NCBI RefSeq assembly: GCF_988242995.1
Contig: NZ_OZ547043.1
Length of the DNA stretch: 64,000 nucleotides
Strand: one strand, 5' to 3'
Both the position numbers and the translations under genes were made by a program. Positions 21,824 to 55,280 of this stretch are shown piece after piece (within the stretch, counting starts at the first letter, position 1; every line of letters starts with the position of its first letter). Below the pieces are notes generated by a model. It did not search any database and was not told where the DNA came from. It saw only the letters and a program-made list of their open reading frames with translations.

Positions 21824-22535
21824 GTGCACAGAAAACCCCCAGCTAGGCTGGGGGTTCCGGAAAGCTTTCAGCTTTGAGCCAGTTATTAAAACCCCTTTTG
21901 ATTTGTTAAAACACTTTGCGGTCTGGCAACTGCAAGTGTCAAACAAGAAATCAAAAGGGGGTCCCAATGGGGAACGAAAAGAGCTTAGCGCACACCCGAT
22001 GGAACTGTAAATATCACATAGTTTTTGCGCCAAAATACCGAAGACAGGTGTTCTACAGAGAGAAGCGTAGAGCAATAGGCAGTATTTTGAGAAAGCTGTG
22101 TGAGTGGAAAAGCGTACGGATTCTGGAAGCTGAATGCTGTGCAGATTATATCCATATGCTTGTGGAGATCCCGCCCAAAATGAGCGTATCCGGCTTTATG
22201 GGATATCTGAAAGGGAAAAGCAGTCTGATGCTTTACGAGCAGTTTGGTGATTTGAAATTCAAATACAGGAACAGGGAGTTCTGGTGCAGAGGGTACTACG
22301 TCGATACAGTGGGTAAGAACACGGCGAAGATACAGGATTACATAAAGCACCAGCTTGAAGAGGATAAAATGGGAGAGCAGTTATCGATTCCCTATCCGGG
22401 CAGCCCGTTTACGGGCCGTAAGTAACGAAGTTGGATGCAAATGTCAGATCGTGTGCGCCTGTTAGGGCGCGGCTGGTAAGAGAGCCTTATAGGCGCATTT
22501 GAAAAACCTCCGGCTATGCCGGAGGATATTTATTT
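21824..22535 (+). mobile_element. IS200-like element (IS200/IS605 family), copy A, about 712 bp
   Basis: identical to copy B at 50427..51138; left-end hairpin aaacccccagc-taggc-tgggggtt; single Y1 transposase ORF; boundaries from where the two copies diverge (+/- 3 bp). Confidence 0.88.
21967..22425 (+). CDS. tnpA: IS200/IS605-family Y1 (HUH) transposase TnpA
   Basis: 152 aa from ATG; HUH-like motif YHIVFAPKYRR and catalytic-Tyr region YIKHQ. Confidence 0.9.
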   Translation: MGNEKSLAHTRWNCKYHIVFAPKYRRQVFYREKRRAIGSILRKLCEWKSVRILEAECCADYIHMLVEIPPKMSVSGFMGYLKGKSSLMLYEQFGDLKFKYRNREFWCRGYYVDTVGKNTAKIQDYIKHQLEEDKMGEQLSIPYPGSPFTGRK

Positions 22536-48255: not shown

Positions 48256-49506
48256 ATGGAAAGTAAAGTAGTTGTTCCGGCACAAGGCAAGAAGATCACC
48301 CTGCAAAACGGCAAACTCAACGTTCCTGAAAATCCGATTATCCCTTACATTGAAGGTGATGGAATCGGTGTAGATGTAACCCCAGCCATGCTGAAAGTGG
48401 TCGACGCTGCAGTCGAGAAAGCCTATAAAGGCGAGCGTAAAATCTCCTGGATGGAAATTTACACCGGTGAAAAATCCACACAGGTTTACGGTCAGGATGT
48501 CTGGCTGCCTGCTGAAACCCTTGATCTGATTCGTGAATATCGCGTTGCCATTAAAGGCCCTCTGACCACTCCGGTTGGTGGCGGTATTCGTTCTCTGAAC
48601 GTTGCCCTGCGCCAGGAACTGGATCTCTACATCTGCCTGCGTCCGGTACGTTACTATCAGGGCACCCCAAGCCCGGTTAAACACCCTGAACTGACCGATA
48701 TGGTTATCTTCCGTGAAAACTCGGAAGACATTTATGCGGGTATCGAATGGAAAGCAGACTCTGCCGACGCTGAGAAAGTGATTAAATTCCTGCGTGAAGA
48801 GATGGGCGTGAAGAAAATTCGCTTCCCGGAACATTGCGGCATCGGTATTAAGCCGTGTTCTGAAGAAGGTACCAAACGTCTGGTTCGTGCAGCGATCGAA
48901 TACGCAATTGCTAACGATCGTGACTCTGTGACCCTGGTGCACAAAGGCAACATCATGAAGTTCACCGAAGGCGCGTTTAAAGACTGGGGCTACCAGCTGG
49001 CGCGTGAAGAGTTTGGCGGTGAACTGATCGACGGCGGCCCGTGGCTGAAAGTTAAAAACCCGAATACCGGCAAAGAGATCGTCATTAAAGATGTGATTGC
49101 TGATGCATTCCTGCAACAGATCCTGCTGCGTCCGGCTGAATATGATGTTATCGCCTGTATGAACCTGAACGGTGACTACATTTCTGACGCTCTGGCTGCA
49201 CAGGTCGGCGGTATCGGTATCGCCCCAGGCGCAAACATCGGTGACGAATGCGCCCTGTTTGAAGCCACCCACGGTACTGCGCCGAAATATGCCGGTCAGG
49301 ACAAAGTTAATCCTGGCTCTATTATTCTCTCCGCTGAGATGATGCTGCGCCATATGGGCTGGACTGAAGCCGCAGACCTGATTGTTAAAGGTATGGAAGG
49401 CGCAATCAACGCCAAGACCGTAACCTATGACTTCGAACGTCTGATGGAAGGCGCTAAATTGCTGAAATGTAGCGAGTTTGGTGATGCGATCATCAAGAAC
49501 ATGTAA
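48256..49506 (+). CDS. icd: NADP-dependent isocitrate dehydrogenase
   Basis: 416 aa; uninterrupted; C-terminus ...FGDAIIKNM differs slightly from the remembered K-12 e14-derived end. Confidence 0.96.
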
Positions 49507-49529
49507 TCTCTACATGTGTTAAATATTGA

Positions 49530-49560
49530 AACGGGCGTATAACACGCCCGTTGTTTTATT
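49530..49560 (+). terminator. rho-independent terminator of icd
   Basis: hairpin aacgggcgtat-a-acacgcccgtt followed by gttttattt. Confidence 0.7.
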
Positions 49561-49608
49561 TATGTGGATATTATTAATATCATGTCGAGAATATTTATAT
49601 GAAGACCA

Positions 49609-49932
49609 TTACTTGAGTCCATATGGGCATATTTTTATAATACAACTATTATGTAAACATTTATTTGTTATTTCGCTTTCTCCTGGAGGACACTCTTGAC
49701 TGCTTTTGAGTAAACTCCATAAATCCTTGTTGAATGGTGTGATGTTATAAATAGTAATAGGGTATTCTTTATCCTTAAAGATAATACCAGACTTAACCGG
49801 TGTAAATATACTTCCAGGAGTGAGAAATATAGTAGGTTGATACCAGATGATCATTTTCATATCACCCCATATGGCTGAAAAAGATATACCGCATGTAGGT
49901 TGAATTACCGTGTCAATTACTATCCACTTCAT
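49609..49932 (-). CDS. iraM: anti-adaptor protein IraM (stabilises RpoS by inhibiting RssB)
   Basis: 107 aa beginning [19 protein letters not shown], matching remembered IraM; AT-rich locus. Confidence 0.75.
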
Positions 49933-50377
49933 TTGTTATGTCTTATCCCACGGTATTTAATATGGTTCATTAGGATGTTTATTTCTTGATTTTGCATATG
50001 AGTATATTACCCCCTCAAAAAACAAATTAATTAAAAATTAAAACCATTGTTTATATAAAACAAAATTTAAAGCAAGAAATCTCAATAGATATTAAACAAA
50101 ATGAGATTTAGTGAAAACATTAAATTATTCACTTCGTTTTAGATTTGTTTAGCTAAAATGTTATACATTCAAATGACTGAACATCCTGTAATTAAAACAT
50201 AGCCTTTATACTACTTTGTGCCAATTTGCTAAACATTATGGTTGGCCTTTTTATATAACGATAATGACGAATATAAGCATGACATGAGAATAAGGTTTCA
50301 ATTTTTTAGTTATATAGGAATGGTTTAACCCATTCCTGGCTAAAATACATATAACCGGATGATGACTAAACCAAAAC

Positions 50378-50426
50378 ACATGTGCGTTAAGTATTGAAAC
50401 GGGCGTATGGCACGCCCGTTGTTTTT
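50378..50426 (+). repeat. second, imperfect copy of the icd 3'-end terminator segment (direct repeat of 49512..49557)
   Basis: acatgtgcgttaagtattgaaacgggcgtatggcacgcccgttgttttt versus acatgtgttaaatattgaaacgggcgtataacacgcccgttgtttt after icd. Confidence 0.8.
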
Positions 50427-51138
50427 GTGCACAGAAAACCCCCAGCTAGGCTGGGGGTTCCGGAAAGCTTTCAGCTTTGAGCCAGTTATTAAAACCCCTT
50501 TTGATTTGTTAAAACACTTTGCGGTCTGGCAACTGCAAGTGTCAAACAAGAAATCAAAAGGGGGTCCCAATGGGGAACGAAAAGAGCTTAGCGCACACCC
50601 GATGGAACTGTAAATATCACATAGTTTTTGCGCCAAAATACCGAAGACAGGTGTTCTACAGAGAGAAGCGTAGAGCAATAGGCAGTATTTTGAGAAAGCT
50701 GTGTGAGTGGAAAAGCGTACGGATTCTGGAAGCTGAATGCTGTGCAGATTATATCCATATGCTTGTGGAGATCCCGCCCAAAATGAGCGTATCCGGCTTT
50801 ATGGGATATCTGAAAGGGAAAAGCAGTCTGATGCTTTACGAGCAGTTTGGTGATTTGAAATTCAAATACAGGAACAGGGAGTTCTGGTGCAGAGGGTACT
50901 ACGTCGATACAGTGGGTAAGAACACGGCGAAGATACAGGATTACATAAAGCACCAGCTTGAAGAGGATAAAATGGGAGAGCAGTTATCGATTCCCTATCC
51001 GGGCAGCCCGTTTACGGGCCGTAAGTAACGAAGTTGGATGCAAATGTCAGATCGTGTGCGCCTGTTAGGGCGCGGCTGGTAAGAGAGCCTTATAGGCGCA
51101 TTTGAAAAACCTCCGGCTATGCCGGAGGATATTTATTT
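50427..51138 (+). mobile_element. IS200-like element (IS200/IS605 family), copy B, about 712 bp
   Basis: sequence-identical to copy A at 21824..22535; same orientation. Confidence 0.88.
50570..51028 (+). CDS. tnpA: IS200/IS605-family Y1 (HUH) transposase TnpA
   Basis: 152 aa; identical translation to the copy-A transposase. Confidence 0.9.
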   Translation: MGNEKSLAHTRWNCKYHIVFAPKYRRQVFYREKRRAIGSILRKLCEWKSVRILEAECCADYIHMLVEIPPKMSVSGFMGYLKGKSSLMLYEQFGDLKFKYRNREFWCRGYYVDTVGKNTAKIQDYIKHQLEEDKMGEQLSIPYPGSPFTGRK

Positions 51139-51347
51139 ATAAATATGTTAACCGCTATAAAATAACGTATCAAAAGTCAAGTAATCACATTTCAAATATC
51201 AATTTGATAGTATTGGCCTGGTGATTATTTATGGGTGGCAATAAAAAGATAGTATATATCATCCATAGGGATAGTCTCTGCACTTTTATTTCCATTATGC
51301 TAATGTCTTACTGAATTATGAAGCATTTCTTAAGCTTCCAACTTTAG

Positions 51348-51752
51348 CTAGATTAATGGTTTATTGTTTTCTACATCTTCAATATATAAAAGCGTATTAT
51401 CAATGGCGTAGTAACTGCGTTTGTTATGATTAACATCAGTAACCCACCGGAAAACGCCCGCGTCTGCCAGTGTTGAACAGTATTCCCGAAATGTTGATTT
51501 TCCGCAAATATGAAGCAATGCGGCCTCTTTTATTTTAGCAGGGTTCTTGGTCGTACTAACTTTTAACAGGTTCCTGGTTCCTCTTAATAACAAAACCGTG
51601 TCATCGTGAGTAATAATTCTGATGTTATCCGTAGCCAGATAATAAATGTAATGTGCAATACGGTGATGTTTTAATTCTGAATAAAACCAGGAGAAGTTTT
51701 GCTCTTTTCTCACTTGCTCAAACATCTTTTGAAAAACAACAACCTGATCCAT
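51348..51752 (-). CDS. ycgX: DUF1398-family protein YcgX
   Basis: 134 aa; position between iraM and bluR. Confidence 0.7.
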   Translation of the reverse strand: MDQVVVFQKMFEQVRKEQNFSWFYSELKHHRIAHYIYYLATDNIRIITHDDTVLLLRGTRNLLKVSTTKNPAKIKEAALLHICGKSTFREYCSTLADAGVFRWVTDVNHNKRSYYAIDNTLLYIEDVENNKPLI

Positions 51753-51972
51753 CAGGATAATAACCTCTTGTTAGTTGTGAGACTGCGTAGTGTGCACGAT
51801 CGGTTTTACCACTTCAATCTGGTCTGTCCTTTGGCTGTGATATGTACAAAGTGTGAAAGGGGGATTACCTGAATTCTCCCGGTGAGCATTTTGCAACGGA
51901 CCAGCTCCGGTACAAACGCTGTTGTGGGTTCAGATTATAAGATTCTGTCTAAGGGGCGGGATAAAGGTAAAA

Positions 51973-52704
51973 TTAGGGGGCATGAAAGATGACTTTATAA
52001 CCTTGCTCACCCCAGTGTTGTAAAAGTTCGTTTTGCCTTCTCGTTGGTGCCATGCCTGTCCAGACAATCAATGTTTGCGTTGGGAACAGTTCCGGGCGCG
52101 GCGATTCAATGGGATCAGCAAGAACAGAAATGTGCCATCCTGACAATGATAAACGCCATGCTTCCAGCCACAATCGTGCTCTCTCTTCAACATTCCACGC
52201 CATCAGAATGGCTTCTTTACCGGGCTTACGGCGCATTTCGAAAAGTGAGGCTGCTGCGTATTCAATTAATGCGCCGTCAAACATACTGCTCATAATGCGG
52301 GAGGTGTTGTGATCAAGCACGAGACGCTGACGAACAGGAAGGTAAACATGATTAATCAATTGATCTACCGGGTACTCTCGACCCAGTGAAATAATTCTCG
52401 CGCGTAGTTTGGCAGGATTAGCCATACGAAGAATTGACATCATCTCTTCTTGCAGGCGGCTCCAGTCATCTTCCGTATCCTGGCTGGTGGTTTCCAGTAA
52501 TGCTTTAACTTTGCCTACAGGGACGCCATTACTTATCCAACGCTTGATCTCTTCGATGCGTTGTATGTCTTCTTCATCAAAGAGTCGGTGTCCGCCTTCA
52601 CTGCGCTGTGGTTTTAACAAACCGTAGCGGCGTTGCCAGGCCCGGAGAGTGACAGGATTAATCCCGCAACGTTCAGCAACATCACCAATGCTGTAATAAG
52701 CCAC
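51973..52704 (-). CDS. bluR: MerR-family transcriptional repressor BluR
   Basis: 243 aa; N-terminal Mer[33 protein letters not shown]. Confidence 0.88.
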
Positions 52705-52908
52705 AATTCCTCCTTGCGGTCACAAATCTCCGTCGCCTGTACACGACCCAATAATACTTTGTACAATATACGCTAAAATTGTACAAAGTATAAATAAGAT
52801 TTCAGCTAAATTGAATGAAACATTATTTTTAATGTGGATTAAATTTAAACATAACGTATTCATTTTCACGATGATTTACTGAAATTATGTGAAATAATAT
52901 GCTGAAAA

Positions 52909-54120
52909 TTATTTTTTCTCTGGCCACGCAACTGAAGGGATACCATTCAATTTAGCTTTCGCAAACAGATCTCCCTGAAACATCTCAATTCCTGCAGATT
53001 CAAGCCACATCCACTCTTCTGGTGTTGCCACGCCCATAGCAGAGACTTGAATTTCAAGTGATGTACAGCATTTCATGATCGCCTGAATAATTGCCTGTCG
53101 TGGTCCGCTTTTATGAACATTGGTAATCAATTCCTGACTGATTTTAATTCTGTCAGGCTGGAAGCGTGACAGGAGTAACAAACCAGCAAAACCTGCGCCA
53201 AAATGATCAATTGCTACACTGATACCGGCAGCCTTTAGCGATTTAACCGCTTCGGCAAACTCATCAAACCGAGATATGACTTCACTTTCAGTAAATTCAA
53301 CGATGATTTGTTCAGGCACCAGACCATTGGCCTTTATTTCATCAAGTAAAAAAGAGACTGCGTCAGGCTCGTTAACCAGGGTCATAGGTAATAGATTGAT
53401 TGATATCATTTTATCACCGAGCTCAAGTGCGTGTGCCATCGCGAATGCAAGCGCCTTACTTTTGAGATCCGCTTTGTAGATTTCCCCGTCTTTACGCTGC
53501 CCAACCGCTATAGCTGATGGGCTATCTTCATTTTTTTGCACAATGGCTTCAAAAGCGATTATCCGCCGCGATAAGGGATCGACAATAGGATGAAAGGCAA
53601 AGTGGTCGTTTATAGTTGGTGAAAGGGTACAGGAATCAAGTTCTTTATCAGATCCGTCAGCGATAAAAAGCCAGGAGTCTTCGGCAGGGATCTCGAAATA
53701 GGTTGCTTGTTCGGTTGCAAGGACAAAAGTACGAAAAAATTGTAGCGCTCTGTCATCATAAGTTAGCTGAAATTTTGATGTGCCTTTGTCGAATACGGCC
53801 TGTAAAACGTCATCTCGCTCGTGCAGGCGCAAATCAAATAATTCCATTCCCGCTTTGCCAAAACGGCGAGCAGGCGCGTAATCGCACATCAGCTCAACAA
53901 TATTATAGTGCCGTGGATCCTGGCATATAGCCCGATATATCATTTTAACCTGTTCTTCCGGACCTTCCAGAAGCTGGAAAAAATGAGAACCATTAAACAG
54001 TAAGATCCCTGTTACGTCAGACTGCATGTTCCTGCGATTTGCTATCGAAACCATTTCTTCGATTTTTTTGACAGGTTCGTCGTCACGTATATGGCTACGA
54101 TAAATAAGGGTGGTAAGCAT
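52909..54120 (-). CDS. bluF: blue-light sensor BLUF-EAL protein BluF (anti-repressor of BluR)
   Basis: 403 aa from MLTTLIYRSH start inside ORF 52909..54198; N-terminal BLUF and C-terminal EAL-like domain. Confidence 0.88.
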   Translation of the reverse strand: MLTTLIYRSHIRDDEPVKKIEEMVSIANRRNMQSDVTGILLFNGSHFFQLLEGPEEQVKMIYRAICQDPRHYNIVELMCDYAPARRFGKAGMELFDLRLHERDDVLQAVFDKGTSKFQLTYDDRALQFFRTFVLATEQATYFEIPAEDSWLFIADGSDKELDSCTLSPTINDHFAFHPIVDPLSRRIIAFEAIVQKNEDSPSAIAVGQRKDGEIYKADLKSKALAFAMAHALELGDKMISINLLPMTLVNEPDAVSFLLDEIKANGLVPEQIIVEFTESEVISRFDEFAEAVKSLKAAGISVAIDHFGAGFAGLLLLSRFQPDRIKISQELITNVHKSGPRQAIIQAIMKCCTSLEIQVSAMGVATPEEWMWLESAGIEMFQGDLFAKAKLNGIPSVAWPEKK

Positions 54121-54433
54121 TAACTGTCCAGGGTAATGGGAGAGGCGAGAGTAAGACGGTAACAGACATATCTTCCGGTGTCTTTCTTTTAATACCAAAA
54201 CATAACTGTTTCTTTACATTGATAAAAAATGGAAAAAGTTGAAGATGAGTTAGCGAAAATTCTTGTATAGGTTGTCATTTAAATGATGCAATATTTTTTA
54301 TCATAACCTGTTGTTTTATATGTATTAGCACTAAATGCAAAAAATTAATTTATCATTCTGTACACATATTTCGTACAAGTTTGCTATTGTTACCTCACTT
54401 AACATTGATTAACATTTTTAACAGAGGCGTAGC

Positions 54434-55013: not shown

Positions 55014-55280
55014 ATGCTTGAAGATACTACAATTCATAATGCAATAACTGATAAAGCGTTATCAAGCTACTTTCGTAGTTCAGGTAATTTGTTAGAAGAA
55101 GAGTCAGCTGTGTTAGGGCAGGCTGTGACCAATTTAATGCTTTCAGGCGATAATGTTAATAATAAAAATATTATCTTAAGTCTGATACACTCTCTGGAAA
55201 CAACAAGTGATATTCTCAAAGCTGATGTGATTAGAAAAACACTGGAAATCGTGTTGCGATACACAGCTGATGATATGTAA
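55014..55280 (+). CDS. ariR: acid-resistance/biofilm regulator AriR (YmgB)
   Basis: 88 aa; paralogous to ymgA; synteny. Confidence 0.8.

Follow-up and report, generated by a model that had tools for sequence, protein, structure and literature searches.

Phage 21 and the e14 element are known to attach at the 3' end of icd. Both use the same icd attB, with a 163-bp icd' stub (PMC12803456, PMC6379469). A second described system concerns the RssB anti-adaptors: iraL of uropathogenic E. coli CFT073 and the iraM-like genes of Stx2 and lambdoid phages belong to one family, PF11183, and are AT-rich, mobile and strain-variable (PMC4045071). A third is the loss of grounded prophages and islets, in which short direct repeats surround low-GC cargo and recombination leaves a clean deletion allele.

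How does the iraM locus studied here compare with these systems? It lies in a stretch of 64,000 nucleotides (the window; contig NZ_OZ547043.1), in an islet between two copies of the icd terminator, T1 upstream and T2 downstream. The islet shares with phage 21 and e14 the locus, repeats derived from the icd 3' end, a phage-borne block ending at the T1 edge and an empty site. In contrast to e14/icdC in K-12, its repeat covers only 46-48 bp past the stop codon, and there is no coding duplication of 163-165 bp. Unlike phage 21 and e14, it has neither an integrase nor phage genes, and the two repeat copies differ by about 7% and an indel, the right copy being in decay. The islet event predates e14.

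The same mixture is found with the other two systems. The window iraM shares its family with the CFT073 and phage genes, at 54-67% identity, but the phage copies are found in the late regions of intact prophages, whereas the window gene belongs to a chromosomal clade and has no phage DNA around it. As with grounded-prophage loss, a deletion allele is fixed in B2; here, however, the repeated sequence is a terminator that serves a gene, and neither the 3' end of a tRNA nor a target duplication made by a transposon.

The islet and its terminator copies

The order in the window is rluE (minus strand), icd, T1, iraM (minus strand), ymgK, T2, IS200C, the right flank F with ymgL, ycgX, bluR and bluF. 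The features are as follows.

48256..49506, plus strand: icd, isocitrate dehydrogenase (open reading frame; RefSeq annotation of near-identical loci; phage-borne copies of 49343-49559)
49512..49559, plus strand: T1, predicted Rho-independent icd terminator, repeat copy 1 (hairpin 49530-49552, then a T-run)
49560..50377, no strand: AT-rich islet, 29% GC, carried by 3933 of 5426 E. coli genomes
49609..49932, minus strand: iraM, predicted RssB anti-adaptor of the PmrD-fold family PF11183 (open reading frame, annotation, homologues and Pfam, family tree)
49962..49966, no strand: scar of a deleted ymgB/ariR-like gene of 84-86 aa, about 437 bp (BLAST breakpoints)
50192..50236, minus strand: ymgK, a 14-codon open reading frame upstream of iraM (homology to RefSeq WP_120795380.1)
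50378..50426, plus strand: T2, displaced second copy of the icd terminator (hairpin 50398-50420)
50427..51137, plus strand: IS200C, 711 bp, with tnpA at 50570-51028 (empty-site comparison; ends fixed from three copies)
51138..51295, minus strand: right flank F with ymgL at 51185-51295 (the same sequence follows the single terminator in iraM-less genomes)
51348..51752, minus strand: ycgX, a prophage-type DUF1398 gene (open reading frame, Pfam; missing in the L035 relative)

The original prediction was that the 46 bp following the icd stop codon (49512..49557) recur at 50378..50426, and alignment confirms this to the nucleotide. In a gapped local alignment of 49512-49557 with 50378-50425, 43 of 46 positions are identical and there is one 2-nt indel; the score is 75, compared with 13.9 +/- 2.9 for 2000 shuffles, none of which scored as high. 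A repeat search likewise pairs 49515-49557 with 50383-50425 (43 nt, 91% identity). The aligned unit reads ACATGT..GTTGTTTT. T1 extends to 49559 once the 'AT' that both copies have after the T-run is counted, and the final 'TAT' of the T2 unit lies past IS200C, at 51138-51140. Local alignment within the window detects no homology between the left flanks of the two copies (p about 0.7-0.8) and no significant similarity between their right flanks.

How far does the resemblance to e14 go? Searched with nhmmer, a profile of the icd 3' end and terminator matches T2 solely from just past the stop codon (E=1e-7), and neither this profile nor the flank alignment reveals an icd coding remnant beside T2 in the window. 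Thus, the proposed duplication of the icd 3' end, as in e14, holds for the terminator (46-48 bp past the stop) and fails for the coding end. The nhmmer search found no further icd-3'/terminator copy in the window; a weak match at 10676-10776 (E=0.005), which had no protein support, was rejected. A 55-nt T2 query found matches in 5389 of 5426 complete E. coli genomes, with a median of two and a maximum of four sites per genome, so the repeat is specific to the locus and does not belong to a dispersed family.

Both copies passed a terminator scan, with a 9-bp stem, a 5-nt loop and a T-run, and their predicted hairpins have similar energies of about -18 kcal/mol each. With a GC-rich stem-loop and T-run placed after a gene end, T1 and T2 can be classed as predicted Rho-independent terminators. 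The hairpin AACGGGCGTATAACACGCCCGTT does not vary among the T1 copies that were read, nor does the phage-borne copy depart from it. In T2, by contrast, K-12, IAI39, LHM10-1 and MFDS show four different substitutions that break the stem, and the loop has also changed. In K-12 one stem base pair of T2 is altered on both sides (G to A, C to G), which yields an A·G mismatch and not a compensation. Constraint acts on T1 and not on T2, which is decaying.

The islet had been described as AT-rich and 0.8 kb long. The composition is as described, with 29.1% GC at 49558-50377 (0.82 kb) against 50.4% for icd; however, low GC is not limited to this interval and runs on from ycgX to bluF (51139-54198), where it is 42% overall with stretches at 30-36%. 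As predicted, the interval between the copies holds AT-rich DNA with iraM on the opposite strand, the only other open reading frame being ymgK. The list of open reading frames shows no integrase there, as had also been stated, and no excisionase or phage genes between T1 and T2. Outside the iraM open reading frame, no homology of the islet DNA to phage loci was found.

The window IraM is 92-93% identical to IraM-named clusters carrying PF11183, and the orthologous gene is annotated iraM in RefSeq; by homology it is assigned to the IraM/IraL/RssC anti-adaptor family, which is PmrD-like. The more distant members of the family (54-67% identical) were found, in every context read, in a lambdoid or Stx prophage, on the opposite strand, between Q or stx2AB and the lysis genes (nanS-p/holin). 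All of these distant relatives are prophage morons, and the IraM family is thus phage-associated. In the family tree the chromosomal IraMs (the common, MFDS and L035 types) form a deep clade apart from the phage copies; the protein search named no chromosomal-type IraM from other Escherichia species.

A separate observation concerns the Stx2 phages, in which the IraM-family gene lies directly 3' of stx2AB on the opposite strand (L020 3206-5105; also L014-L019 and L023). The toxin is therefore accompanied in these phages by a putative RpoS-stabilising anti-adaptor.

Haplotypes and empty sites in E. coli

Of the 5426 complete E. coli genomes, 3933 carry the islet, and in most of them it is 93-95% identical to the window sequence. 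The closest relatives of the window include ST38- and O17-labelled strains, which we take to be phylogroup D; phylogroup labels follow throughout what is known of the strains. About 1037 of the 5426 genomes have an empty site, in which icd (or icdC) is followed by a single terminator, F, ymgL and ycgX, and the breakpoints are the left edge of T1 and the right edge of T2. The empty-site strains that were recognised (Nissle 1917, NU14, APEC O18, ATCC 11775 and ATCC 25922) are all, we assume, B2. The absence of iraM from CFT073 (PMC4045071) is in line with this pattern.

Are there iraM-less genomes that retain both repeat copies? Those examined have one copy each, and records with a T2-like copy (3919) track those with the islet (3934); by the agreement of the two counts there is no class of iraM-less genomes with both, in keeping with the original prediction. 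Among the plasmid records of the E. coli collection there are 8 islet matches and 26 terminator matches.

In some iraM-less genomes (G749; L001 1806-1860) the only terminator is the GTTAAAAACNGTAACGGG variant, with F immediately after it. This variant is otherwise seen beside e14-type arms (L038/MFDS and the Citrobacter locus L009), which suggests recombination between element-borne and resident copies.

The order in K-12 is e14–icdC–T1–iraM–T2–ycgX, and iraM thus lies outside the e14 attR. The placement of K-12 iraM 'on e14' (PMC4045071) is imprecise.

Three further haplotypes retain a ymgB/ariR-like gene: LHM10-1 (L040 1798-2052), MFDS (L037 2101-2361) and L035 (642-902). In LHM10-1 (L040) the order is T1–iraM–ymgB/ariR-like gene–T2–F. 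These are older haplotypes; in the common islet the ymgB/ariR-like gene has been deleted, with the loss of about 437 bp. The product of the gene is 36-40% identical (aa) to ariR at 55044-55277 of the window, and no phage homologue of it was found.

The MFDS-type haplotype occurs in 19 genomes (MFDS1022581 and 18 others; L038 is NZ_CP169399.1 2938000-2945000). There, icd is followed by an e14-type terminator and attL arm, a 455-aa open reading frame that has no NCBIfam match, an IS remnant and trkG, which in K-12 belongs to the Rac prophage. Then come IraM (69-74% identical), the ymgB-like gene, an F-like segment F', about 150 nt, ATCAAGAATATGTTAA, T2*, F and ycgX. The ATCAAGAATATGTTAA segment beside T2* resembles the last codons of icd over roughly 35 nt (local-alignment p about 0.002).

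A relative known from two short contigs, L035 and L036 (SRR13871025, ERR4405726), has bluR–F'–ymgB-like–iraM contiguous, with no T2 hairpin, ymgL or ycgX; on the far side are an IS3 fragment and a LysR-type gene. The T2 hairpin may have been deleted there, or T2 may be younger than the islet.

Was the islet lost from B2, or did B2 never have it? Quite probably, its absence goes back to a single T1×T2 deletion on the B2 stem, within the last roughly 15 common bases. The single terminator copy of B2 has the diagnostic bases of T1. The T2 lineage, by contrast, has a derived G (TTAAG) common to three haplotypes. No T1-left/T2-loop (GG loop) hybrids occur in 1036 empty sites, which is consistent with one deletion event. 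IAI39, which we take to be phylogroup F, the sister of B2, carries sitABCD–hypothetical–icdC–T1–iraM–T2–ycgX. Its left context is 99.2% identical to that of the iraM-less B2 strain N61, which aligns to IAI39 until the T1 end and resumes at the T2 start. Its right flank is 98.2% identical to the D-type window and 97.0% to B2, and IAI39 shows signs of mosaicism.

In both IAI39 (L033, 1992456-1997986) and N61 (L004 270-1664), the hypothetical gene immediately upstream of icdC encodes WP_000567449.1. The sitABCD iron/manganese transporter of IAI39 lies just past it, a position that makes the sit genes part of the icd-integrated material.

The opposite polarity, in which one terminator and no islet is the ancestral state kept by B2, and the islet was inserted after the B2 split and spread (including to F) by flank recombination, is somewhat unlikely. 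The roughly 1037 empty sites with one junction type are consistent with a single state, the lack of a chromosomal-type IraM named from other Escherichia species fits, and the B2-like left and D-like right flanks of IAI39 are compatible with an imported right half. However, strains of F, D, E and A all carry the islet, and the T1-like copy of B2 is unlike the T2 lineage with its derived G. The divergence of the islet among lineages, at 5-7%, exceeds that of the flanks, and this points to age and not to recent spread. The MFDS haplotype weighs in the same direction: its right flank differs by about 7.4% from all others, B2 included (under 3.6% among the others), and it has T2 at the same F junction. 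The expectation that the one-copy state is ancestral is therefore not favoured, since IAI39 and this deeply diverged haplotype both have the islet and T2; secondary deletion is more likely.

In the right-flank tree only the outgroup position of MFDS is clear: distances within the ingroup are star-like and recombinant, and the split uniting LHM and MFDS has a bootstrap of 34/300. A hairpin scan outside E. coli recovered one locus of E. albertii and three of Citrobacter. Of these four, three carry a phage 21-like or e14-like prophage at icd and include too little downstream DNA to show the pre-insertion state. The blu/ymg unit of Citrobacter freundii, reached through BluR homologues, lies away from icd.

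Origin of the islet

What left a second icd terminator beyond iraM? The reading that we prefer, with a probability of roughly 0.6, is that T1 and T2 are the remains of an old Campbell-type integration at the icd 3' end, since decayed to iraM alone. The incoming element would have carried its own icd 3' end and terminator, like the phage 21/e14-family elements of today. After a single crossover the incoming copy would have become T1, still terminating icd, while the resident copy would have become T2, displaced downstream beside its original flank F. The element would then have decayed to iraM and its promoter region, an earlier stage also keeping the ymgB/ariR-like gene, and the displaced icd coding stub would have been lost, leaving T2 to drift. 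In B2 the islet would have been removed by T1×T2 recombination in the last 15 or so common bases; in the window lineage IS200C would have inserted after T2. In this account the repeat and its exact edges, the presence/absence polymorphism, the phage-borne terminators, the decay of T2 and the independence of IS200C are observations, while the integration, its vehicle and the direction of change in B2 are inferred.

Present-day icd-integrating phages and elements carry the required terminator. Twenty-eight phage 21-family records match the window from 49343/49348 to 49559, and their host homology ends at 49559, the right edge of T1. In O157:H7 Z1812 the prophage beside icd supplies the 3' end of the gene, along with a terminator that does not differ from T1. 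Homology of this prophage to the chromosome ends at ...GTTGTTTTAT, just before the integrase gene (junction read in L006). In K-12, e14 has a diverged version of the icd terminator, with homology ending at the T-run. Had a phage-borne terminator once been the neighbour of the DNA to the right of T1, the phage host block would be expected to end at the T1 edge, as it does. In O157 and K-12 the layers are nested, as icd–prophage–icdC–T1–iraM–T2.

The footprint of integration is visible in part. Direct repeats derived from the icd 3' end flank the islet, the right edge of the repeat coincides with the end of phage homology, and empty sites exist. On the other side, there is no att-core duplication 163-165 bp before the stop and no icdC stub, so the classic e14-type duplication of 165 bp is lacking in the window, where T2 has no icd coding remnant. 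Between the repeats, neither an integrase nor DNA recognisable as phage remains, and phage homology stops at the iraM open reading frame. The proposal that the iraM module arrived by integration at the icd hotspot, or is the remnant of a decayed element, thus gains from the repeat, the phage-borne terminator and the empty sites, while the sequence does not distinguish integrase-mediated from homologous integration.

MFDS bears on the same question. Its iraM is placed between an e14-type attL and a decayed icdC plus terminator, and this directly supports delivery via the icd site. The MFDS structure may, however, be an independent event that is not orthologous to that of the common islet.

A variant of the integration reading holds that iraM islets were repeatedly brought to icd by icd-integrating phages carrying chromosomal DNA of a prior host, in natural specialised transduction. 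MFDS may be the preserved case, its iraM*–ymgB-like–F' being colinear with the L035 chromosome behind attL and the trkG cargo, and followed by a decayed icdC+T2 and the resident F; the common 0.8-kb islet may be what is left, after complete erosion, of an earlier event of this kind. We regard this as unlikely.

Alternatively, iraM may be native to the low-GC bluR–bluF–ycgZ–ymgAB region, with T2 a local terminator copy made by gene conversion or duplication. This is a doubtful explanation, less probable still than repeated transduction. Its main evidence is that in L035/L036, bluR–F'–ymgB-like–iraM are contiguous, without T2 or ycgX, and the islet there abuts F without the T2 hairpin, which also weighs against integration. 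The ancestral islet contains an ariR paralogue without a phage homologue, a hint of chromosomal cargo, and the chromosomal IraMs form their own deep clade. However, a native origin offers no mechanism for a 46-bp terminator copy exactly at the junction of islet and F, and it leaves unexplained both the coincidence of the T1 right edge with the end of phage 21 homology and the icd-codon remnant by T2* together with the e14-type attL in MFDS. Moreover, the L035 hairpin could have been deleted, the locus being otherwise rearranged (IS3 fragment, LysR-type neighbour).

That T2 was owned or brought by the IS200-like element, or resembles T1 by chance, can practically be dismissed: T2 directly adjoins the IS left end (50426/50427), and a megablast match to another IS200C copy (H31) began within the T2 3' arm, but IS-free genomes retain T2, comparison of three IS200C copies places the left end at GTGCACAG, and no shuffle among the 2000 equalled the alignment score.

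The preferred reading, old integration followed by decay, thus treats IS200C as a later event unrelated to the islet, and this independence is observed directly. The insertion after T2 is common to 164 genomes, while in the IS-free genomes (ST2747, K-12 and O157 PV15-279; loci L002, L003 and L005) T2 is directly followed by F. T2 is therefore flanking DNA, as had been supposed, and not part of IS200C. Each of the three copies that set the left end abuts a different terminator-like hairpin and T-run, the other copies having upstream hairpins unlike that of T2, and this explains why the BLAST match seemed to run into T2. The pattern suggests that IS200C may strongly prefer targets with a hairpin and T-run. 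Two 100% identical 711-bp copies are present in the window (50427-51137 and 21824-22534), and the third is at L039 417-1127. Further to the right, ycgX has the prophage paralogues ybcV and ydfO (PMC3509220).

What the islet means for E. coli

The islet adds one more case of a known phenomenon, at a hotspot that is itself well known, and does not change how such elements are understood. Its interest lies in the strains. B2 includes most extraintestinal pathogens. About 72% of E. coli have this regulator of RpoS stability and B2 lacks it, a difference explained by one 0.87-kb block between terminator repeats, and a PCR across icd–ycgX would score the iraM status of a strain. For the literature, the finding brings a correction, as iraM of K-12 is to be placed outside the e14 attR. 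The icd attachment site leaves layered terminator fossils, and these are usable for ordering past integrations.
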